Shown in pieces: positions 16,656 through 63,500 of a stretch of 64,000 nucleotides of DNA. The first letter of the stretch is position 1. Every line of letters starts with the position of its first letter. The DNA comes from Trichoplax sp. H2 (Eukaryota): assembly GCA_003344405.1 (NCBI GenBank), contig NOWV01000011.1, positions 124,001-188,000 on the forward strand, given 5' to 3'. The translations under genes were made by a program, and so were the position numbers. The notes beneath the pieces are model-generated. The model did no database searches, had not been told where the DNA came from, and was given only the letters and a program-made list of their open reading frames with translations.

Positions 16656-18136
16656 ATGTCGGTCTCCTATGCACCCGTTAACTTACGTTTGCCTCCTGGA
16701 TTTCAAAATCTATTGGAAGGCTTAGCACGTGAAGTTTTAAGATCTCAACCGGAAGATTTATATAGCTTTGCTGCGGGCTATTTCAGAGATAGATTGACCT
16801 ATAGAGAAGGTAATACACCAAATTCTTGAGATCATGGCATTGCTAAAACCTTAGCGTAATTGCAAATGTATACTTCACTATGTCAGATACCGGAATTGAT
16901 GACGCCAAAATTGGTGCGGAGATGGAAAAACGCATTAAAGGAGATGGCGCTATACCTATAAATTACGATGATCCAAAGGTGGAAAATGCGGTTATAACTA
17001 TCCAATCAGGCTTTCGAGGCTATAAAGATCGTAAATTAGTGGCAGAGATGAAATCGGAGAAACCTCAAGCTGATGGAGAGACACAAGAAGGTGAAAATCA
17101 GACCGAAACGGTAGAGGAAACAGCTACAGATGAAAAACAAGACGATGCAGAGAAAGATAATACGGAAAATCAAGAAATCTTAGACATTGATATGGATGAT
17201 CCCGAGTTAAACAAAGCTGCAATCAAAATTCAAGCCAGCTTCCGAGGTCATGCTTCAAGGAAAGATATGCAAAAAAGTAAGGATAGCGGTGATGACGAAG
17301 AGGCAAAAGTTGAAGATAAGGCTGAAGAAGCACAGACCAATGACGTAGATTTCGATGGAGCTGCTATTAAGATACAATCTACTTACAGGGGCTATCGGGT
17401 TCGAAGGACCCTAAGGCGATCAAATAGCGCTCCTTTAATTGATCCACGTGAACAATATCGTCATCAAGCCGCTGTCAAAATCCAATCGACGTACAGAGGT
17501 CATCGTACAAGGCAGCAATTTCGATCTTCATCAGCAGGAAAAAGGTTCTTATCAAGGAAATCATTTGATGCGAATGGATATACCGCAATAAGTCAAAGCC
17601 ATGAGTTTGCTACCAAAGATGCAACTGACACCGCATTAACAGCTACAGAAGATACTCAACCTACGGAAGAAGTTGCAGAAGAAAATGCAACCGTAATCGA
17701 TACGACAGTCGGAGAAGAGAGTACAGAGGTAGCTGATGATGGAAATAAAGTTACGGATCCAATAGCTACCACGGATAATGCAGAAAATCATTTAGAAGGG
17801 GAATCGCAAGCGAAAGCAGAAAATCAAGCCGAAGGGGAATCGCAAATAGAAGAAAATCAAGCAGAAGGGGAATCGCAAGCAGAAGCAGAAAATCAGCCAG
17901 AAGGGGAATCGCAAGCAGAAGCAGAAAATCAGCCAGAAGGGGATGCGCAAGCAGAAGCAGAAGCAGAATCACAAGCAGATCTAAAACCCGAAGAAAGTAA
18001 AGAAGAAGATATTGATATCGATTTAAATGATCCCGAAGTCAGTAAAGCTGCTATTAAAATACAAGCTACGTTTCGAGGCCATGCTGCCCGAAAGAATCAA
18101 CAGTCTTCACGAACAGACGAAGAAAACAATGAATAA
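16656..18136 (+). CDS. Sp17/SPA17-like protein: N-terminal PKA-RIIa D/D domain + five IQ motifs + acidic repeats
   Basis: Exon 16656-16809 encodes MSVSYAPVNLRLPPGFQNLLEGLAREVLRSQPEDLYSFAAGYF (D/D domain). GT-AG intron 16810-16886 joins in frame to the 418-aa ORF, which has five IQxxxRGxxxR motifs. Confidence 0.85.
17790..17975 (+). repeat. Coding tandem repeat (~33-36 bp; EGESQAEAENQ[P/A]) in the Sp17-like gene
   Basis: About 5 copies of gaaggggaatcgcaagcagaagcagaaaatca. Confidence 0.85.
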
Positions 18137-40764: not shown

Positions 40765-41388
40765 CGTGCCGTGTAATACATTACAATATACCATACTGTC
40801 CAACCGGCGTTCTTATTAATTTTTTGAATCAAACATCTACTTTGCATAGGTCGTGACTTCCTGTTATTTAATGAAATCTTATAACTGATAGATGCCTTTC
40901 TGCAGCCTGATACTGTTGCCAGTCTAAACGTACAATGCAATTGTTACGATGCGTAAGCTCGTCCTAATTATAACTTTAAAAGGATACTTTTATATTATGT
41001 GCACCGGGAGTTTCTGACGAGACTATAAAAGGCTGGTGCCTGAAGATTCCTTTTTAGTTCGTTAGTCGGTTAGATAGTCAACTAGTTTTTCAATTGATAT
41101 TTAATTGTAAAGACTATAATCTTGGGTGCCAAGATTCCTTCAGTAATAAATGATAGTAAATCTCTGACTATCTCGTCTACATCATCTGTGANNNNNNNNN
41201 NNNNNNNNNNNCGTGCCGTGTAATACATTACAATATACCATACTGTCCAACCGGCGTTCTTATTAATTTTTTGAATCAAACATCTACTTTGCAAAGGTCG
41301 TGACTTCCTGTTATTTAATGAAATCTTATAACTGATAGATGCCTTTCTGCAGCCTGATACTGTTGCCAGTCTAAACGTACAATGCAAT
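40765..41388. other. 177-bp direct duplication (40765-40941 and 41212-41388) next to a 20-N assembly gap (41192-41211)
   Basis: The copies differ at one visible base (gcatagg/gcaaagg), and the second starts exactly at the gap edge. Probably a haplotype or assembly artefact. Confidence 0.85.
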
Positions 41389-41930: not shown

Positions 41931-42906
41931 TTACCGCTCTAACTTTAAATCGTTTAATTTCTTTGTTATATCTACTTCCGTCTTATTATTACTGCATTTA
42001 GCATTTTTATATCCTTTAGTAACTGGATAGAAAATTTCTCTATTTCCTTTCTTTAGATAGGTTTCCTTGCTTACGTTTGTAGTTGATTTTGTAACACCTA
42101 TTGATTTGGCATTTGTACAGCTAGCAACTTTTTCGGTGTCAACTTTAGCAGTCTGAGCGGGCCTATGCTGCTTACTCATATCTGTTTTATTTACTATTGA
42201 TTTAGAAGTTTGGGTAGCACTTTGATTAATAACATTTAAGCCTAAAGCATCTTGGTCTTTTAACAATTTGGCGTAGACCAGTTGTAATAGTTTAACATCA
42301 GTTAGTGCTCCATGCCCCAGCGATCGCGAAGACTTATCAATATTAAAGCGATCACATAACGAATCAAGTGAGGCTGGTTGTCTCGGATATAATTTTCTAG
42401 CCATCAGCATTGTATCAATAACACGTTCGAAAGATATTTCAGGTATATTCAGTTTTTGAAATTCGTTATTGATAAATTTGATATCGAAATGGCCATTATG
42501 AATGATAAGGGTATCTTCTTGAATAAAGTCACAAAAGTCTTGTACTATCCCATCGAAAGTAGGAAATCCTTCTAGAAATTTGTTCGATAGATGATGTACC
42601 TCAAAGGCCCTTTCTGAGACTGGAAATTTCGGATTGATATAGCATTGGAATGTTCGGCTAGTTGGTTGATGATCGATTAATTCAAGGCAACCAATTTCGA
42701 TTATTCGGTGGCCAGTTCTTACGCTTAAACCAGTAGTTTCGGTATCCAATACCACCTCTCTAAGAGGTGATAAGTTGCTGAAAGATGTTAATTGTCAAAT
42801 TAGCAAAGATTAAAATGTCAGGTAGGTACAGTACTTACTGCACTATTATGGCTAAATGGAATAGAAAGATCATTATTTTGGCTATTCTATCAACGATTAA
42901 AGTCAT
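41931..42906 (-). CDS. dnaQ: Bacterial-type DNA polymerase III epsilon (DnaQ) DEDDh 3'-5' exonuclease with a spliceosomal intron
   Basis: LREVVLDTETTG (ExoI), HNGHFDIKF (ExoII), HGALTD (ExoIII). GT-AG intron 42838-42778 (GTAAGT donor, TTTCAG acceptor) joins in frame to an upstream exon; ATG at 42906 is tentative. About 110-aa S/T/K-rich tail. Confidence 0.9.
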
Positions 42907-48000: not shown

Positions 48001-49659
48001 AAATACATCGATAAAGTGCATTAAAGTAACTGAAAGCAATACCAATTTATCTTTACGCTGTAGAGTAAGCTTACATGAGGATTCCACTCTATTCTTTTGC
48101 AACTCTGATATTGGCTATTGTCAACGTACATGCCTAAATAGTTAAGTGAATATAATTAATGGCTTCGAAAGCATTAGTTGGATATATCTATGAAATAATT
48201 ACGATTACTTTAATTTCTCTAAATTATTTTACCGAAGCCATCGTTGGGACATGGTTTATCAGGAGAATAAGCTAATATAAATGTAATTATAAAGTTTCAC
48301 CAATTTGATAGTCATTTAAATTAGGCAAATATGATTACTATTTGAAAAAATATTAAGGAATGATTATAATATATGCCTATAGTAGTAGAAATACCGTCAG
48401 GAATTTCTTTATCATCAGAAGCAGTATCATTAGCTCCTAGTATAATGATTCCAGCAATCTTTCGCTTACTCATTAAGAAATTGACGTTGTCTCTGTAAGG
48501 AGATTTAATACATAATTAAGTTTTGATTAGTAGATAAGCGATATTAAGTAATGCATTTATGCTGTGATTATGTAGGATTATAGTTAGACGTAAAAGAATT
48601 TTTCAAAACGTATCATTTTATTGCTTTGGTGCAATTTATCGGTAAAGTTCGCCATCATGCAGTTAATCACATCATATTGAATTAATTAATTATAGATTAT
48701 TGTAATACTAGAGGAATAGATGCATTATTTACTACTTACAAATTAAATAACTTTGGAGTCATTAACGGAACATAATCAATATCAAGCTTGCTTGTAGCTA
48801 ATTTATTCATATCAGAAAAACTCTCCACCAAGTGTAAGACGCCAACATTTCGCCAGTACTTGGCTATAGGAAGTACATAAAAAATTTATCCATATAATAC
48901 AATGCATGTTAGATATCTATTTTAACTTTTAAAATTTCTGAACTATATAGAACTACAGCTTTTAACTTTACTCGTATCATTGATATTTTGTGCAATGATG
49001 ATATTAACCTTAAACGTCAACAATAGTGATAAGCAATTAGCATAGTACTGTGTCATTGTTACTTACAGGTGCATCCAATGCTGTGATTCTTATTGGTGTA
49101 CCTGACGCAATAATTAAATGAGGTGATATCACGGTATACCAGTTTATTCACTGTTTGGCCGTGAGCAACTGTCCAAAAAATGAGTCAAGATTAAGAACGG
49201 TACTACTTCTTTATCTCTTGTCAAATACAAGTAATCTATTTTTCGATTCAATTGGTAGAAATACGGTTACAACAAGGTTGTAATAATAGTGATGAGCAGT
49301 AATATAGCCACCGTTGTTCATTGATAGTACTACATTTAACTCTAAATTTACCTTACTCTTATTAATTACAATGACTAAGTAGCATACTTTTGGTTTATAC
49401 CATATATCAAATACGTAATCAATTCTACTATACAGTACTGTGATCATGACTGAATTCCATTTCTTCTCATTGTTCGTTTCCATCGAGCGAAATCAATTCT
49501 ACGTGTATGTACATACCAAACTCGTAAACTAATGGATTGAAAACTGATCTAATTCTATATGCTACAGATATTAAGGCATATAATCCAGTGATTACCGTGA
49601 CATATCAAGATTAACCAAGCAAGCCGTAGTAGAAATCGATCACAACAGTTGGGCTTCAT
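45074..49659 (-). CDS. NCSTN: Nicastrin (gamma-secretase subunit), multi-exon
   Basis: Signal peptide MKPNCCDRFLLRLAWLILICHG; CVRYTNKNHSIGC; CDPLGDSNVW; APGTDNDASGFITLLSAA; ESWDYIGSSRMVYDM (DYIGS motif); LPPASVQRFLRK; C-terminal TM GIFFIGLGVLLLSFVVV; stop at 45074. Confidence 0.95.
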
Positions 49660-49719
49660 CTTTTCTCCAGTGGGGGAAATGACGTTTTCCTTCCAATCCT
49701 TCAGTGGAGTGCGATCATG

Positions 49720-50075
49720 GTGCTGTACGATACAGTACAGTGCGATATAACAGTATAGGACACTACTGTACCGTGCTGATAAAAGTTGACTAAGGTTTAC
49801 ACTAGACTGGATTCTAACTGTAAGCACTGCAGATATAGTGCTACAGTACAGTACTGTACTGTAATAAGCAGATACAGTACTGTACACTGTAGCGTACATC
49901 TGTATAGCAGTACTGACGTCATACTGTACCTTACTGTACAGACAGTTACAGTACTGTACTGTAAACGTTATACTGTACTGTACTGTCTGTACTGCATAAG
50001 TACTAGACTGGACTGGATCGGACCAAGCTGGACTTAGTCTTATAGTATGCAATACTGACTCACACTACAGTACAA
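49720..50075. repeat. TACAG/CTGTA-rich low-complexity array in the NCSTN/BBIP1 divergent promoter (strongest of several such arrays)
   Basis: Dense cagtac/tactgtac pentamer-like repeats on both strands. They produce the spurious TVQY/YSTV ORFs in the track. Confidence 0.8.
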
Positions 50076-54514: not shown

Positions 54515-55653
54515 ATGGTTCTTGATGGTGAATATTATGCCGCTACAACTATTGTAGTGACTACTCTAATCATTTATTATGGTCGTGACTTGCACTTAAA
54601 AACTTTGAGCCACTGTCAGTATCTTCCAACTGTATTTGCTATAATATTTAGTTGGCATCGTGGCACTCTGCAATCTTTATTACATCGAGCTCTTTTATTA
54701 AATCAAAGCTATCAGGTACACAGTACACAGCTTAAGTTAACTTCACTGGTTTTTTTAAAATAGTTTTAATTATGATATTCTACATAAATTATGGCGTAAT
54801 CGCTTGTTTTATAGTCATTAGAGATCATAATAGGTACAGCCTTAGTAATCCTTATTATGTAGCATTCTGCTGTTTCATAAAGCATATCCAAACTATTGCT
54901 ATGTCGATTTAAGAATCGATAACGTATCAACAATTAAGCGTTTACATAACATAAAATTTTTTGTTGTGATTTCTTAACTTAAATAGAAAAAGCTGATAAG
55001 AAAGATATTCCATATAACTGAACTATATTAAATTTTGGGTTGATTATTTTAATAAGGTTATCGGGCTTCATATAATGCAAGGGATTACGATAGCTGCAGC
55101 TTCCATTGGACTAGTAGCAATGCTAGATGTCTTTTTGGGCTGGGGTATCATTAAGCAAAGTAAAAACTCAAACACTATTTTTGGACCAAACACAATTTCG
55201 AATTATGGCATCTTTAGTTTATTGAGAGCTTTTGGAGAAGAATTTGGTTGGCGCTGCTATCTCATGCCGATACTTTTGGCAAAATACAACGTCATGGAAA
55301 CATTATTTATTAGTGGTATCATCTGGGCATTATTTCATATTCCAATTATGATATTACTAACTGCTAGATATGAAGTTGAAAGACCGTTGTATACCTGGGT
55401 GCTGCAAGGCTTATCTGTATTTCTTGACGCTTATGTATTTGGTTGGTTATCAATCCAGACAAATTACTCCCTATGGGCTGCAGGATCATTTCATGCTGCA
55501 TGGAATTTCATTAATCCAATTGTGTTGGGTAGCGTATATACAAATACAGATGGCATTATTAAAGGAGAACTATGGAAAATTAACGGTGAAGGCTTAGCTG
55601 GTTGTATTGTTAGTCTTATGATGATTTATTTAATACAGTTAAATATATCTTAG
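54515..55653 (+). CDS. CPBP/Abi (type II CAAX protease-like) intramembrane protease of bacterial appearance
   Basis: GEEFGWRCYL (EExxxR), WALFHIP and FHAAWNF (HxxxN). Exon 54515-54715 joins in frame (phase 0) to exon 55057-55653 through a GT-AG intron. Confidence 0.8.
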
Positions 55654-56773
55654 CTCTTGTAGTTAATTTTAAAAAGTCATTTATAGAAAGTAATTACATT
55701 TTAAAAATAATTAATTTCATTAGAGCCAGTTACTTTTGTCTTCGTTTATATGTTGCTAAGAGTAAGTATCTATAAATGTATCATTGCATACGACTTGCAT
55801 AAATGCTAATATTGATACTGTATCATTTTCAATCTGACTGACCACACATTGGCTGAATAGCACCTAATAGCTCTACTAGCATTACATTGAGAGTAAATAG
55901 ATAATTTGCAAATAAAAGTGCAGTATCTGTTTCTTTAAGTTCTTCGATCTTGCGAAAGAGCTACTGAGGATCAGATAAGCTAAATCGGTAGGAAAAATGT
56001 TGAAGTTCCATTTCGCAAAATCTTTTCACTCTTTTGCCAATATCCGTATCCGTATTCATTCTCACAAATCAATTAATAAATTTTTAACCTAGATGTATTA
56101 CAAATTAATTCGTAAGTTGTACACACTCTTAGACCTGGTTTTTGCAAGTTTCTACAGAACAGTCATGACAGTAAAATGACGGAGTTTATTTATGATCTCA
56201 AAATCTTTAACTTTTTCTCACTATCAAATTTTATTATTAAATTCTTCTGACCAATAACTGCTATAAAAGTCTTCATACATGTGTTACTCTAATATGCTTT
56301 TCAATACGTAGAAATATAATCGGTATAATTTAATGCCTACACAAAATGTACATTTCTATTACAGAAAGTAATAATTCTTTCTATGTACACATATAGAGGA
56401 TTTAGTGTAGTAGCCCACAGGTAGACTGATGATGGCATTCTACTTTATAAGAATACTGGCGCTACTATTATGGAGGCTTTGGGGAATATGCAAAGAAAGC
56501 TTACCTTGTTCTATTTATTAGCGTTATAATGATATTGATATTTAATTCAATTAAACTTAACTTAAACTTTTGTACAAAGTTTGCAAATAAGTTTATTGAA
56601 AGCAAATTTAGTTTTCAAATCAATTCAGTTAATAAGAATCAATCATTTCCCGTTTTATCGTCCTAGTATACTGGTATATCCCTTACTAAAAGGAGATATT
56701 TCAAAATATACAACCAAATAGAGATTATATCAGTGATAATTTTAGTTTTTTAATTACAGCTAGTATAATAACA

Positions 56774-59700
56774 TTAATACAAGTTGATGGTAGGTTGCAT
56801 AATAGTATCAGTAGTAAAGATTCCTAATTGTGCCATTTCTGTTTTTAACTTCGTCATCATATCACCTGAAAGTTCCTGTAATGGAGAGCGAGGAATACCA
56901 ATGTCTAATCCCCGCAAGGTCAACATTGCTTTATGAACAGTAACCTCATTACCTGCCAACGTAATAAATCAAAATTGATAATCAAATATCATTCCTCTAA
57001 TATTTCTGGATATATTCTTAAAATATATTTGATAATTGAGGTGTTGTACGCACTGTATGAACCTAATTTTCTGTGTACAGCGTTAACAATGCCCTATTAA
57101 TAAGAGAAATTGAAATTGTCAGGGCAAAAATCTAATAAAACAAAGTAATCTGCCAACTCCAAAGTAGTAACTCACCGACGACATGAAATACCTTACTTGA
57201 TTAATTATATACTAAAAAGACTTTGATAAATTAGAATAGCATATCTTACTTGCAGCCGTCGAGCTTCGTGTATATTACCAAGTTTAAAGCAATCAATGAT
57301 ACCATTGTATAATTTTCCTAAATAACCATATACGCTAAAATAATTTATCGACAATACAAAAAAAGCAATTAAAATTTTACGATCATTTAAAACGACATAT
57401 GAAATTTCACGCCTTAATAAAATAATTTTAATCTGTAATATTTACTGGCTTTGAAAGATCGTACACCCGACCGCAAGACCTCCTAAAAATTGCTAAAACA
57501 AAGAGTACTCGTAAGATTGTAATTTATTTGCAAATTAAAAAAATGAAACTTAAATGTACTACGAATCTTAAAGTATATTTGAGGCTTAATATTACTTAAG
57601 AAACTTCAGTTGTGTACCTCTTCTCTCCCCATGATCATGAAATAATTTTTCGAATGAACACTCGAGGTTTTACATAGGCCGTAGTCACACAAATTATAAC
57701 CATTGTATTGCGTACCACAGAACGTTGGAACATCAAATGCAATACAGTTCAAAATTTCTTCAAGATTTAGAACAGAAACTACAAATATTTGTTAGTGGTT
57801 GCTCGTAACAGTACGTACTATGCCATAAACTAAAGGTTAAATCAATTGAATACAAAAAATATTTCTCTATAACACATACATGGTTCTGTACTGGATGTAA
57901 TAATAGTTTCTTCAGAGTGATTATATAAGAGAGGTATATTAGGAGCATCGCGAGAAATATTAGACAAGTAATTTGTTAAGGTTGCTAAAGAAAACAATGA
58001 AAAAGAAAGTAAACTTTAGTACCAATGCGATAGTGACACAGGAAAGGATTTCATGCTAACTAGTGATTGTCACTTGGAGATTTTTTAATGCCCAAGCTCC
58101 CTAAGTATCGGTAGTAACTTAAACATAGAATCAAAATTCATCTGCGATATATCTTACCTATTCTAGTTTTATATCCATAACTTGGACAAGTACAACTAAT
58201 AGCTGAAACACCAACGGATTGTGCAAAGCGTGCCTAACAAAAGTATCAGGAATAAAAAACACCATAGCGTAAGTTAAATTAATAAAATCTTTCTACCACT
58301 TTTACTCGTATAGAACGCATGCGTTAAAAATAAAAAAAGAATCGAGTGACTACCAGTTCAGTTGCTGCGTTGAGACAATCGCAACTAACGTTACAGATGA
58401 TTCCCTGAAGTCTACATAAGCAAGTTTTATTATAATAAATTCAATTACCAATAATACAATTATTGCAAATGTAAGTTTAATTGTACGAAATTTACAGTAA
58501 ACATACTTTCCCTGAGATGCTCTAGCCCATTCTTGTACTATGGCTTTCCTTTCGTCGATCGTTAATGATTTATATTCACCAGCATCACTACATACTGTTG
58601 GTTGGTTAGCAATTAGGAGTAACACCCATATTAATCAATATTAACAGAAATAAGTGCGATAAAGATAGATGAAGTAGAGCTTTAGCTTTCATAATATTAA
58701 ACTTACTGTGACAAATCGTAATACCATCGCTGAGTAACAAATTAATATATTGTGGAATTAAGGTTAAATTGAGTTCTCTGCTCGTATAAATATTTTTATT
58801 AGTTATAATAAATGTTAATGTTGTATTGTTGAAATTAAATGATGAGATTAATCTTAGTGATTTAGACTATAGGAATAATTTAAGAGCAACTTAAGGACCA
58901 CCTTACCTATTAGCTATAGTGAACATGACATCACCATATTGTATTCAAAAGAATGTAGGTAATAAATGAGCTAATAGAGTAAACTAACCCGTTACGATGA
59001 AAAGGAGTCAATACGTCAGCTATTAAACCTTCTACCATAAATTGTTTAGGTGTCGTAATCTAGATTTTAATAACAATATCGAATGGTGCAAAATTAATTG
59101 ATTAATATTTTTTCTAAATCTTTAGCAGAAACTAAGGCGAAAATTTTGATTGAAATAGTTGAGATGTATTGCTAATTGTACCATAATTATAATTACTGTA
59201 GTTATGAAAATTATCTAATGTTACTATGGAAAAAGATAGATGATATCTATAATTAATAATACTACAAAAAAGTTATGCAGCACAACATGCTGAATGGAGG
59301 TATTTTTCGTATAACTTACAGGTGATACTTTCATGCCGTCATTTAATTCACCTTGGATGACAGGTCGAAATACTTTACTGGTTAAACGTTTGACACCTGA
59401 TGAAGAAGCTCTTGATCGATTTTGACTAGCATTCGTTTTCTTAGCTCCAGTAATGGTAATAGTAGTAGTAGCCTTGCTGGTGGAATCATTCTGATCATTT
59501 TGCAATTTCCTCACCAATAGCTTTTCATAAGGTTTTCTAGTAATACAGTATATGCATATATTCTGAAATCTCTTAGCGATCGTAAAAATTATTTGCAAAT
59601 TAATTTTATTGTAGCACCTCCACATCGCCTAACTTTTGTATTATACTGTACGAATTGCAATCACAATGATGATTACTATGATTGTGTTACCTAATCATTT

Positions 59701-60539
59701 TAAAGCTTTAGCTGGCTAGTAACTGTTAGCAAAATGAGTAATAATTACTGCAGTAGGTACTAATTAATCGAAGCAATTGTAAAGTAATACAGTAGTTGGT
59801 AGAAGAGTGTAGCAGGCATTTGTAATGTATTCCTTGACATTCGACGAACTTGTTGAGCAGATGAGGACAGTAGCATATGATTTATAAGCCCATAGTACTG
59901 ACAGTATTATAGGGTAAGGATATCTATTATTGTTAAAGGTACACACTGGAAGCTGATGATTGCCATATTTTGTTATGCAGATACTGTGTTAGAAACATGT
60001 AGACTATGACGTCAAGTGTAAACACCATTTTAAACCTTGCGTGTATGACGTTAGGCAATAAATATGATATGACATCAAAAGATGGTACAGCAAGATTCCT
60101 AATGCGATCAACTTGTATAGGAATTTATCGTCTTATCGTTGATGATTGACTGTTAATACAAAGATTTTTGTAACTATTTGAAGTTTTGATACTAGAAAGT
60201 GACATCTTTGTCAAGAAACTGAGCAGCACTGTAAGAGTAGTAAGATAAAAAAATGGATCATCCATATACGGTAGACGTCTACATGCTAATACCATTGATC
60301 GTTCTTATCGGTAGAATAACATTTTTGTACAGTAATCTCGTTTACCTGGTGCTATCAGTGATTGGGCCAGGTTTCTCACCACATTTGATCAGCTCTGCTT
60401 TGAGCTCAGCGTTGCTTAATTCAGTAAGACTTTTACGTTCACCATTGATAACGTCAAACATAAGTGTGTTGATATCTACTGTAGCTTCCTTCCGTTTAGT
60501 CGTTGACTTTCTACTTCGTTTTAATGGTGGTGTAGCCAT
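56774..60539 (-). CDS. LEM-domain protein spliced in frame to a degenerate N-acetylneuraminate lyase (NPL/DHDPS-fold) domain
   Basis: Exon 60539-60346 plus exon 59536-59320 give LEM LTELSNAELKAELIKCGEKPGPITDSTRKPYEKLL. A phase-0 intron leads to exon 59059-58989 (VEGLIADVLTPFHRNG), then NPL-like exons (GEYKSLTIDERK, ARFAQSVGVSAI, VPTFCGTQYNG, MGREE|QFLGGLAVG, KAMLTLRGLDIGIPRSPL). Confidence 0.75.
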
Positions 60540-63500
60540 TGCCAAACTTTGAACGAGTCAGTCAGTATACAGTTCAATACACTTCAAATATGTAGACTAG
60601 TTACCGTTCGAAAGTACGGTAGGCTCTTTTTCGGCTTTCTTTGACTTGCTAGAGCTGTTGTTATGAAATGTAAGATAGTTACAGAGGACTTCTTAATGCC
60701 GGGAATACTATTGTAACAACAGTGGCTATTTTTTTCAGCCTTTCCTTGAGTTGTTCCTGTTGACAAAGTCAGTGATTTGATACTGAATCACACTGTAATC
60801 TTAGCTTGGCAGATTCTACAGTGATCCAGTCAGCACGACTATGTTGGTGAAATCTCTCCTTCTTAGGACACGGATTGGCGTAGAACTACTGTACGTATTC
60901 ATTTTTAAGCATTAGGGTCAAAGGACAGATAAACGCATACAGTTTTAATTATCAACTGAATTAGTTGTTTAGAAGAACGTCTAGTCTTGTTTTATGTTAA
61001 GTATGTTAGCTAAGCCAGTAAATTTCATGGCATAATTTTACGTTTTTATCACTGAAATTCTTCACTTACCGCACCATCAAGTCCGCTGGAAAAATTGATT
61101 CAATGGCTGTCAATTTACCAATTATAATGTATTTAAATGATGCTTCACGTACAGTATGACGTGAAGCGTTTCAATTGTTTTTGTGTCAAACGTACTGTAG
61201 CTCTAGTCAAACAACACAACAACCGATCGATGTTCACACTGAGTACAGTACACTGAGTACAGTACAGAATTGTACTGTAGAGCATGAACTCCTATAAAGG
61301 ATCTACAGTACAGTACTGTACTGTACTGTACTGTACCGTACTGTACATACTGTACACTTCGCAACGATTTGCAAGTACATTTGTACAGTACAGTTCACAT
61401 CAACTTGACACATCAGTTAACTCGCTGTAATTGATTAATTTATTATGATAAAGTAAAATAAAATGAAGAGGATATAAAAATTAATAATGACCGTCATAAT
61501 ATGCTATTTTCTTCTTCATTTGATAATTATAATTATCACTAGCCAGCCTTAGATAACTCCATATTGAAGTAGTGCGTCAGAAACAGTGATTTCCAGCTGT
61601 AGCGTACGCACACTCGTACGGCAGTTTACAGTATACTGCAAACACTAAGGTTGCATTGCATTGTACAAAGCACAACGTGGTGCTCCACTAAAGCAGCATG
61701 GTTCAATAGTTCAATCTATAAACTCCAAAGGTTGATTAAACATCGACAGTAAACTTGGCTGCATATGGTGGTTGGGTTGTCAATTTCATCATGTCTATAA
61801 AATGTCTACAGTACAGTATATTCATTGAGTTAACCACACGAACTTTTATCGCACGCTCAAGTAACGAGTGGATAAACAGCAGTACAATTAAACATTATAT
61901 TATCAACAACGCTGCGTACAGTATGGACGTACATGAGCAGAATTGGGTTCAGCATGGAGATAAGAATAGGTTATGGCGGCATGCTACTGACCAGAAATTA
62001 GAAATCCTTAGTTTCTCACGTTTACAGTAGTATAGGAGACTGCAAAAATGATCTTTGGTGACATTTGGGCGTAGCTCATGACCTCAGAATTTTTAAGATC
62101 CAAACAGCGAAACAGAATTGAAGTGAGATCATGTTTTTGTTTATAAGTTAAATTTTTGAACCCAATACTCTAAAGTCGATAGCGTTGTGTATGGTTATCA
62201 GAGTCTAATGCGCCCGTAAGCCATGTCATGTTTAAATTTTTTTAAATTTGTATTTCATTTCGTTTACTTCATCTATGGCCGTTGAATTCCTTCTAAAGGG
62301 GTTACGGAGCTTATATCTTTAGCTGTTCAACATTCAGTTGCGCTAATGCATTACCACTGGGGGTTCAAGATACGGCCTTGACCTATGGCACTTTGCACAC
62401 GTTGCATTGTTGTGCCAAGTAGTGTACACTGTACAGCACGTAATAAGTAATCCAATTATTGAGATCTAGTACAATATAAACTAAAGATATAGCGTAAATA
62501 TATTATGAACAAGTATCTAGAAACTAGCTATATTGTATAGCCTATATATCGTACATAACTCTTATACGTGATTAGTAACGTCAACAGATTATCTGAATAA
62601 ACCAATGTTGTCCGTTGTGTCCAATTAGTGTGTGGATTACTAAATCATATTTACGGTATACCTTGCAAAGTGTTTATAGTATTTTTATTCTACCTTATAA
62701 AAGATAGCAACATAAAAATAATAACAATAATAATAATAATAATGCTATATTTTTTGTATTTTACCGAAGGATAACTTGGCATAATATAAGAGGTCAAGAT
62801 CTAAATTGTATTTTTATTTCAATGTGTAGATGCAACTACTTCGGTGTATGGAATGTACTTCCATGGATTATGGAGCTATATATGTATACTTGTATAACGT
62901 ATAATAAGACTTATTTGCTTACAGTTTTAAAAATCTGAAAATATGCAAACTTGCAGTTCTTTGATATATCTAAATCGAATAAACCAATGTTTACAACTTT
63001 ATCGCAAGCGCTTATCAAATTTTGTTTATACGTTTTATTACTCTTTTTTTTGGACGATAAAGTGTTACTGCATGCTACGTGAGTGAATTTTAGATTTTAA
63101 ATATACTATGCTTCTAATATTTTCTTTGTACGAAAATGTTTTTACTTCTTGACCTTAAACTTTTAAGTTAACACTACTATACAGTAAATAACTAAATATT
63201 TTAGGCATTTAATCTAGATTGATAGTAAACAAGAATGAAAGACTTGTGAATCATTGTCACTATATATATAATACTCGTATATATCGTATGCATACATTCT
63301 TAAATTATTATTATAATTACATATTATATGTTTGTAAGTCTGTATTGCTTTTCAACATTGTTTCGAAGAGTTTTAGGTCGAAGTCGTAAGGGATCGGGTA
63401 TACAGTACACTATACAGCTGCTGTATCTTCAATACTATACAAAAACAAAAACGGCGATCAACGAGTGATTTAAACCATATACGCATATTTTTATATGGCA

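Follow-up and report, generated by a model that had tools for sequence, protein, structure and literature searches.

We analyzed a 64,000-nucleotide (nt) window of the Trichoplax sp. H2 genome (positions 124,001 to 188,000 of contig NOWV01000011.1), which is AT-rich (GC content, 32.6%) and eukaryotic with short introns. The subject of this report is a minus-strand gene in this window that encodes a LEM domain fused to a domain resembling N-acetylneuraminate lyase (NAL; NPL in humans). Its coding sequence (CDS) runs from 60539 to 56774 in 13 coding exons and comprises 1392 nt, specifying a product of 463 residues. An original prediction, made from the DNA letters, had described an NPL-like domain at 57618-58600 that had lost its catalytic residues. 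This range does fall inside the lyase-like part, but it takes in only coding exons 5 to 9 of the 13. What the prediction had not foreseen is that this domain belongs to a transcribed LEM fusion, as its C-terminal part, and that sponges have such a fusion with intact catalytic residues.

For transcript evidence, Logan contigs of four sequencing runs from four studies were compared with positions 56400-60900; run X8 is RNA on record, and X5, X6, and X4 are guessed to be RNA. The same 12 joints between coding exons were found in X8, X5, and X6 each, in three studies, and they read CT..AC on the plus strand, corresponding to minus-strand GT..AG. In X5, a single 1871-nt contig spans the complete LEM-lyase CDS. 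Run X4 gave only short unspliced pieces without any joint and is uninformative on splicing. The 12 introns that separate the coding exons all have GT..AG ends, splicing them out leaves a frame open over 463 codons, and every junction occurs in RNA contigs, so the exons had correctly been called open with intact splice sites. Runs from three studies thus document both expression and correct splicing of the gene.

All exons lie on the minus strand. At 60889, one X8 contig has a loose end, which maps uniquely to 61071-61100, with GTAAGT and AG at the boundaries and an intron of about 181 nt in between. Thus, at least one further exon of the 5′ untranslated region (UTR) exists, part of which is given by this single contig. 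The first coding exon (60346-60888) contains the 5′ UTR up to the ATG at 60539, which is preceded by an in-frame stop, followed by a basic N terminus and the start of the LEM domain, and it is spliced to the next exon through joint 60346|59536 in X8, X5, and X6. Coding exon 2 (59320-59536) completes the LEM domain and continues into a Ser/Thr-rich linker of low complexity. Its joint to exon 3 (59320|59059, in the same three runs) removes a canonical 260-nt intron and puts the LEM and linker exons in frame with the first lyase-like exon. Coding exon 3 (58989-59059), delimited by joints 59320|59059 and 58989|58777, starts the lyase-like domain with the first barrel strand, G-L-I-A-D-V-L-T-P-F, and aligns with the N-terminal strand of relatives.

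The remaining exons follow the order of the barrel. Exon 4 (58707-58777), supported by RNA joints and by the frame, encodes helix 1 and strand 2. It is followed by exon 5 (58507-58594), where, in the alignments, S187-D188-A189-G-E (58589-58575) replaces G-T/S-T-G-E, by exon 6 (58354-58411; strand 3, C-N-V-S-C-D-C), and by exon 7 (58158-58233; strand 4, S-C-T-C-P-S-Y-G-Y). Exon 8 (57880-57984) encodes strand 5, in which Asn280 (57922-57920) occupies the column of the catalytic Tyr, and then a 7-residue loop insertion. RNA joints support exons 5 to 8 as well. Strand 6 lies in exon 9 (57618-57778), with Gln317 (CAA, 57710-57708) in the column of the Schiff-base Lys and E346 in place of the Asp of G-x-D-E. 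Strand 7 lies in exon 10 (57446-57492), whose terminal Q-S aligns with the V-G of V-G-S-T-Y-N, Ser362 (57450-57448) being in the Gly column. The initial V-Y-G of exon 11 (57250-57334) completes S-H-V-Y-G, and His363 spans the exon 10/11 junction. Exon 12 (57054-57093) is 40 nt long and is joined to the last exon through 57054|56952 in X8, X5, and X6; a 31-nt form of exon 12 was ruled out by the RNA contigs. Exon 13 (56774-56952) encodes the C-terminal helical part, including the conserved K412 and G-x-P-R-x-P, and ends with the stop codon TAA (56776-56774). Beyond it, the 3′ UTR extends to about 56583-56652, where the contigs end.

Compared with these contigs, both public gene models of the protein contain errors. 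In the NCBI model of Trichoplax sp. H2 (P0001, 466 residues), exon 3 (58989-59059) is skipped, 30 residues of intron (58778-58866) are read as protein before exon 4, and exon 12 ends 9 nt early, with 57054-57062 missing. The Trichoplax adhaerens model (P0002, TRIADDRAFT_55200, 336 residues) includes exon 3 and joins it to the LEM part, and it is without exons 9 to 12 and part of exon 4. The RNA contigs correct both models to the 463-residue product. Two public models that conflict with each other and with the RNA might raise the suspicion that the fusion is an artefact, neighboring LEM and lyase-like genes having been merged by prediction or contig assembly, and an ATG (Met145) in the first lyase exon makes a lyase-only product conceivable. 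We regard this as highly improbable. Contigs of three runs, each from a different study, contain the in-frame junction across the canonical 260-nt intron, none of the contigs has an alternative 5′ end at the first lyase exon, and sponge proteins derived from transcripts share the architecture. Because junction 59320|59059 is present in RNA contigs, the LEM-lyase fusion is transcribed and is not an artefact of prediction.

A word-index search found the exon 9 translation to be 100% identical to P0001, which is named "N-acetylneuraminate lyase [Trichoplax sp. H2]" and carries Pfam DHDPS and LEM annotations. The corrected protein consists of the basic N terminus, the LEM domain (about residues 38-73), a disordered linker of ~60 residues, and a complete NAL/DHDPS-like barrel with C-terminal helices (about residues 138-463). 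On P0001, Pfam DHDPS (PF00701) scores 66.9 bits against a cutoff of 22.1 (E 1.6e-18, profile positions 16-287 of 289), and Pfam LEM (PF03020) scores 47.9 bits against a cutoff of 24 at residues 38-73 (E 9.9e-13, profile positions 2-37 of 40). The translation of the first coding exon alone matches Pfam LEM (E 9.5e-10), and the LEM part matches the solved LAP2 LEM domains 1h9f and 1gjj in phmmer (E 5e-6 to 9e-6). Single exon translations gave no Pfam DHDPS match, because the pieces are too short. When P0001 was searched against solved chains with phmmer, human NAL (6arh) ranked first (E 1.4e-31), followed by bacterial N-acetylneuraminate lyases and then by dihydrodipicolinate synthases. By descent and fold, the domain belongs to the DHDPS/NAL family. 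Two further matches, SWIM on exon 7 (E 0.038, 14 bits against a cutoff of 19.6) and an MmcB-like match of P0001 (18.2 against a cutoff of 22), were below threshold and were taken as chance. The N terminus is rich in Lys and Arg, which suggests a resemblance to a nuclear localization signal, and no transmembrane segment is visible in the sequence or in the structural model.

This model was generated with AlphaFold2 from P0001 and a 73-row alignment. The mean predicted local distance difference test (pLDDT) score was 80.3, with values of 83-95 for the LEM domain, below 50 for the linker and the intron-derived stretch, and mostly above 90 for the lyase domain. The best solved match of the model in Foldseek was human NAL 6arh, with a template modeling (TM) score of 0.90 on the target and a root mean square deviation of 1.9 Å. 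In the same model, residues 116-119 of P0001, in the exon 2 linker, form a short strand with a pLDDT of about 76; it may stand in for the missing first barrel strand and is probably an artefact of the wrong gene model. A homodimer prediction for residues 166-466 of P0001 gave a score of 0.49, versus 0.40 for a single control, a result that speaks for oligomerization no more than against it.

An exhaustive phmmer search (E ≤ 1e-3) gave 1541 hits, and to compare the active site with that of the family, the RNA-supported protein was aligned (MAFFT) with the nearest 149 of their cluster representatives. The column of the Schiff-base Lys holds Lys in 145 of the 149 and Gln317 in Trichoplax, encoded by CAA at 57710-57708 on the minus strand in the frame F-C-G-T-Q-Y-N-G. 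The gapless alignment with 6arh places P-T-F-C-G-T-Q-Y against P-T-F-Q-G-L-K-F, Lys again being replaced by Gln. The contigs of X8, X5, and X6 over exon 9 (57618-57778) show no differing letter and read CAA, not the Lys codon AAA; because they match the exon fully, CAA is no assembly error. In the E. coli enzyme, Lys165 (strand 6) forms the Schiff base with pyruvate, and active-site roles are described for Tyr137 (the catalytic Tyr, on strand 5), Ser47 (in the carboxylate-binding G-S/T-T-G-E motif), and Thr167 (a sugar contact, two residues past the Lys), according to PMC6559660.

The other hallmarks of the active site are replaced as well. The column of the catalytic Tyr holds Tyr in 146 of the 149 representatives and Asn280 (57922-57920) in Trichoplax. 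Against 6arh, I-P-L-L-Y-N-H-S-E aligns without gaps with L-P-F-Y-Y-Y-H-I-P, and the phmmer alignments to 6arh, 6h4e, and 5afd together with the MAFFT alignment all place Asn280 in the Tyr column and Tyr279 one residue before it. Furthermore, a Pro conserved in 145 of 149 precedes the catalytic Tyr by four residues; counted from this Pro in Trichoplax, position +4 is Asn and position +3 is Tyr279, which in a strand would be expected to lie on the opposite face, directed away from the pocket. The replacement of YYYHIP by LYNHSE that the original prediction had noted is therefore real, but the Tyr register, which it had called ambiguous, is unambiguous in all four alignments. In the G-T/S-T-G-E motif (G in 144, T/S in 141, T in 114, G in 142, and E in 145 of 149), Trichoplax reads S-D-A-G-E and keeps only G-E, and the 6arh alignment sets I-C-S-D-A-G-E gaplessly against V-N-G-T-T-G-E. 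Further substrate-site columns are also replaced: A152D; Asn319 for the T/S found two residues past the Lys in 136 of 149; Glu346 for the Asp of G-x-D-E, present in 128 of 149; and S-H-V-Y-G for G-S-T-Y-N (G in 139, S in 107, T in 112, Y in 108, and N in 125 of 149), with His363 in place of the Ser. We take G-x-D-E and the Ser of G-S-T-Y-N to be sugar contacts. The comparison with human NPL in the original prediction was sound: the human string that it quoted matches the 6arh row, no gap interrupts the alignment over the three named motifs, and the claimed losses of the Lys and of GTTGE are both present.

The lyase-like domain can thus be read as a pseudoenzyme, because it should be unable to form the lysine-pyruvate Schiff base on which every characterized class I aldolase relative depends and because the new Asp argues against keto-acid binding. 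With Asp-Ala standing where two hydroxyl residues would line the carboxylate pocket, the ancestral keto acid is probably no longer bound. Since all four residue-level hallmarks of the enzyme are missing from the domain, the database name "N-acetylneuraminate lyase" is misleading. The pocket also bears on the idea that the domain is a noncatalytic sensor, binding a sialic-acid-like or keto-acid ligand and reporting to chromatin. The barrel and pocket architecture seems to be retained in the model, as are Glu347 of G-x-D-E and some aromatic residues. However, the Asp that replaces one of the two carboxylate-holding hydroxyl residues would repel a carboxylate (for the role of Ser47, see PMC6559660). 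Replacements have also affected the G-x-D-E Asp, the G-S-T-Y-N Ser, and the T/S past the Lys, which makes a sensor quite unlikely.

The best nonplacozoan matches among the 1541 hits are two sponge proteins of the same build, P0003 and P0005. P0003 (421 residues, about 32-33% identity) has Ephydatia muelleri KAL5499648.1 in its 90% cluster. P0005 (475 residues, 29% identity) is Sycon ciliatum XP_065192705.1, which also occurs in a transcriptome-derived set. In both cases a single stretch aligns with the query, starting at about residue 35-40 and reaching the C terminus. Their Pfam DHDPS scores are 165.5 and 161.5 bits, versus 66.9 in Trichoplax, and the LEM domain of Sycon scores 38.5 bits, above the cutoff of 24. 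Both keep G-T-T-G-E, Y-Y-Y-H, the Lys, D-E, and G-S-T-Y-N. A LEM profile built from the three fusion proteins matched only their own clusters among 307 collected proteins, and no LEM domain was found in 17 other long hits; one candidate for a further LEM fusion, P0190 (440 residues), was ruled out as an internally duplicated lyase. Searching the word index with the lyase part returned the two Trichoplax models only and none from another placozoan genus. With a profile of 13 animal lyases (E ≤ 1e-20), none of the best 120 of 3377 hits carries the name Trichoplax, which is no evidence that a second, intact lyase is absent.

Since sponges of two classes share the architecture with intact catalytic residues, the LEM-lyase fusion probably predates the loss of catalysis. 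A quick maximum-likelihood (ML) tree was computed from 56 rows, that is, the lyase parts of the three fusion proteins and representatives P0004-P0060, with the two-domain proteins P0013 and P0057 and the fragment P0042 left out. The free quick tree did not bring the three fusion proteins together, and a tree constrained to group them had a log-likelihood 13.3 above that of the free quick tree, with a P value of 0.70 in the approximately unbiased (AU) test. A single origin of the fusion is compatible with these data, short of proof. In the simplest history, the fusion would have arisen before the sponge/placozoan split, or at least be shared, and catalysis would have been lost on the placozoan branch.

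Family-wide conservation shows what has been given up and what remains. At a threshold of ≥85% of the 149 representatives, 29 columns are conserved. Trichoplax retains 20 of them, fewer than any other full-length row, compared with 29/29 in Ephydatia, 25/29 in Sycon, and 29/29 in rat NPL. The nine lost columns are A152D, G187S, G223S, H236F, Y280N, P283E, K317Q, D346E, and G362S. The 20 kept columns, which include Pro156, Gly190-Glu191, Glu199-Arg200, Pro276, Gly315, Gly344, Gly356, Gly423, Arg426, and Pro428, look structural (Gly, Pro, and core positions). A loss set that includes the Lys, the Tyr, G-x-T-G-E, and G-x-D-E is, on the evidence of the alignment, the usual signature of a pseudoenzyme and unlike that of a decaying gene. 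Four other representatives among the 149 lack the Schiff-base Lys, namely, P0032 (T), P0080 (I), P0089 (M), and P0143 (I). Of these, P0080 and P0143 are also without the catalytic Tyr, and P0032, from the spider Oedothorax gibbosus, is partial. Lys-less copies may have arisen more than once in the lyase family.

Decay deserves a closer look, since the lyase-like part could be a vestigial tail drifting neutrally behind a LEM domain that is functional alone. The long end branch of Trichoplax in the quick ML tree (1.78 versus a median of 0.83), the low Pfam score (66.9 versus about 160 bits), and the loss of the catalytic residues would fit such a tail. Against this stand about 326 lyase codons open across 11 exons, whose canonical splice sites are all intact and in use, the 20 of 29 conserved, structural-looking columns, and the retained identity of about 32-33% to the Ephydatia protein. 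The window and the four runs differ at seven coding positions. In the lyase part, three differences are synonymous (Ser251, Pro425, and Thr438) and one is conservative (Leu174Met), the Ser251 change (AGT>AGC at 58180) being present in all four runs; the LEM and linker part has no synonymous and three nonsynonymous differences (Lys11Asn, Ala108Val, and Thr117Ala). The ratio of synonymous to nonsynonymous differences is thus 3:1 in the domain versus 0:3 in the rest, small numbers in both cases. By our own count, the introns of the lyase region in X4 have diverged no further than the exons and so provide no usable standard of neutral change. Constraint on the lyase part is nevertheless indicated indirectly, because the open frame, the used splice sites, and the structural columns survive, and the divergence between Trichoplax and sponges would long since have erased unconstrained sequence. 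We consider the neutral tail rather improbable. As a separate observation, the four runs differ at some 24 sites in intron 1 (59537-60345), in part at half depth within one run, and at very few sites in the rest of the gene; the intron may be a divergent haplotype or a repeat-bearing stretch.

The lyase-like domain is also unusually rich in cysteine, with 13 Cys residues versus a family median of 5 (57448-58589). C186, C224, C226, C249, and C314 lie in or at the ends of strands 2, 3, 4, and 6, near the former active site, and a metal or redox site at these strand ends is conceivable from their positions. The protein might then still be an enzyme with changed chemistry, using another nucleophile, a Cys-held metal at the strand ends, or a different substrate, within a barrel kept at high model confidence and with Tyr279 and Tyr252 remaining beside the old site. 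We consider this unlikely for several reasons. Nine of the 29 conserved columns are lost, known catalytic and substrate positions among them, and no family member is known to work without the Schiff-base Lys. Moreover, several of the Cys residues replace small hydrophobic core residues (V/I/A columns), Cys occurs at column 186 in 65 of 149 representatives, and Pfam searches of the exon translations detected no metal-site motif, the SWIM match being below threshold.

Taken together, the above-described results lead us to favor, with a probability of roughly 0.6, an expressed pseudoenzyme module of a LEM protein, in which the dead barrel is a folded body and the whole serves as a chromatin tether instead of a metabolic enzyme. 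The pseudoenzyme reading of the original prediction is supported. LEM domains bind BAF on chromatin. Since the protein carries such a domain, has a Lys/Arg-rich N terminus, and shows no apparent membrane segment, we read it as a soluble LEM protein that is probably nuclear. The LEM domain would dock it on BAF-bound chromatin or the nuclear lamina. NAL family members are homotetramers, built as a dimer of tight dimers. By analogy, the dead barrel would be the structural body that most likely oligomerizes like its relatives or else binds a partner. If it were still tetrameric, one could speculate that it presents several LEM domains at once and cross-links BAF-bound chromatin.

Several points weigh against this interpretation. 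The confidence of AlphaFold2 is driven by an alignment of real enzymes and is no proof that this sequence folds, and the model was built from P0001, without the true first strand. Lys193, Lys255, and the conserved Lys412 are present in the domain, and a substitute Lys could reach the pocket. Oligomerization is assumed from the family. The evidence for selection is thin, since three synonymous changes out of four in the lyase part are as expected under constraint but too few to weigh more than as a hint. As to the history, the Pfam LEM score of the Ephydatia protein is 21.2 bits, just below the cutoff of 24; 26 of 53 inner branches of the quick ML tree are open; and failure to reject the constrained tree proves no clade, so the fusion could have arisen twice.

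A broader scenario, which we put forward as doubtful, is that early animals tethered a sialic-acid-type lyase to chromatin or the lamina via a LEM domain, that sponges keep a likely active enzyme there, and that placozoans made of it a Cys-rich noncatalytic nuclear scaffold. If this were true, the BAF-linked structural role would be the conserved one and the chemistry dispensable, and sugar-acid metabolism would be linked to nuclear architecture. The CMP-sialic acid synthetase of vertebrates has a nuclear location that is unexplained, and under this scenario it would be a possible parallel.

Other features of the window lie outside the LEM-lyase gene. On the plus strand, a 210-codon frame at 55021-55653 encodes an Rce1-like CAAX/CPBP intramembrane protease domain (Pfam E 2.8e-14). 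It and the LEM-lyase gene are convergent, with some 900 nt between the end of the frame and the 3′ UTR of that gene. At 41934-42794 on the minus strand, an uninterrupted 287-codon frame encodes a DnaQ/RNase T-type 3′-5′ exonuclease domain (Pfam RNase_T, E 3.7e-29). This frame is unusual among the surrounding short-exon genes, and a run of 20 N lies nearby at 41192-41211. A plus-strand frame of 428 codons at 16850-18136 combines five IQ calmodulin-binding motifs (Pfam E 4.1e-29) with an acidic A-E-G-E-S-Q-rich repeat. Repetitive translations of the T-V-Q-Y-S-T-V-L-Y-C type occur on both strands at about 61200-61430 and at 49555-50064, which points to a short tandem repeat in the DNA, located immediately upstream of the LEM-lyase 5′ exon and again about 11 kb away.

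The combination of LEM and lyase is already visible in the domain annotations of databases. In the full-text literature outside subscription-only sources, we found no published account of LEM paired with the NAL/DHDPS family and no published pseudoenzyme of that family. Full-text searches likewise returned no literature on an N-acetylneuraminate lyase or LEM domains in Trichoplax, on Trichoplax sialic acid together with NPL or CMAS, or on the evolution of sponge LEM domains and BAF; what did turn up was an unrelated proteomics paper for LEM with N-acetylneuraminate lyase and, for the sialylation pathway in Trichoplax, a paper on glycosyltransferase family 54. Within the literature searched, the DHDPS/NAL family would thereby gain its first described pseudoenzyme. 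The case amounts to a natural experiment on one conserved two-domain protein, whose enzyme half is intact in sponges and disabled in placozoans, where it is still expressed and, according to the model, folded. A noncatalytic role of an aldolase-fold domain is therefore directly testable. Besides correcting two public gene models, the analysis raises the question of why a sialic-acid-type lyase became attached to a chromatin-tethering LEM domain in early animals.

Human NPL/NAL (6arh) and bacterial NanA share homology with the Trichoplax domain over its whole length (E 1.4e-31), the same predicted fold, and the structural Gly, Pro, and Arg columns. In contrast to these enzymes, the Trichoplax domain is without the Schiff-base Lys, the catalytic Tyr, the T-T of G-T-T-G-E, the Asp of G-x-D-E, and G-S-T-Y-N, and it has the 7-residue insertion in the loop after strand 5, 13 Cys residues, and the LEM fusion. 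The sponge fusions of Ephydatia and Sycon, whose source names are only "hypothetical protein" or "N-acetylneuraminate lyase-like," have the same order of parts, with a basic N terminus, a LEM domain, a low-complexity linker, and an NAL domain. Judged from their residues, the sponge proteins look like active enzymes, whereas the Trichoplax protein does not.

Among LEM proteins, the closest comparison is with ANKLE1/LEM-3, a soluble LEM protein with a GIY-YIG nuclease. Both combine a LEM domain and a flexible linker with a globular domain of catalytic type, but the body of the Trichoplax protein appears to be a catalytically disabled aldolase-fold barrel, which would extend the small set of soluble LEM proteins that carry an enzyme-type body. 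Pseudokinases and pseudophosphatases have kept fold and expression while the residues of their chemistry were replaced. The Trichoplax domain likewise retains its expression and, in the structural model, its fold, with the residues of its chemistry replaced.

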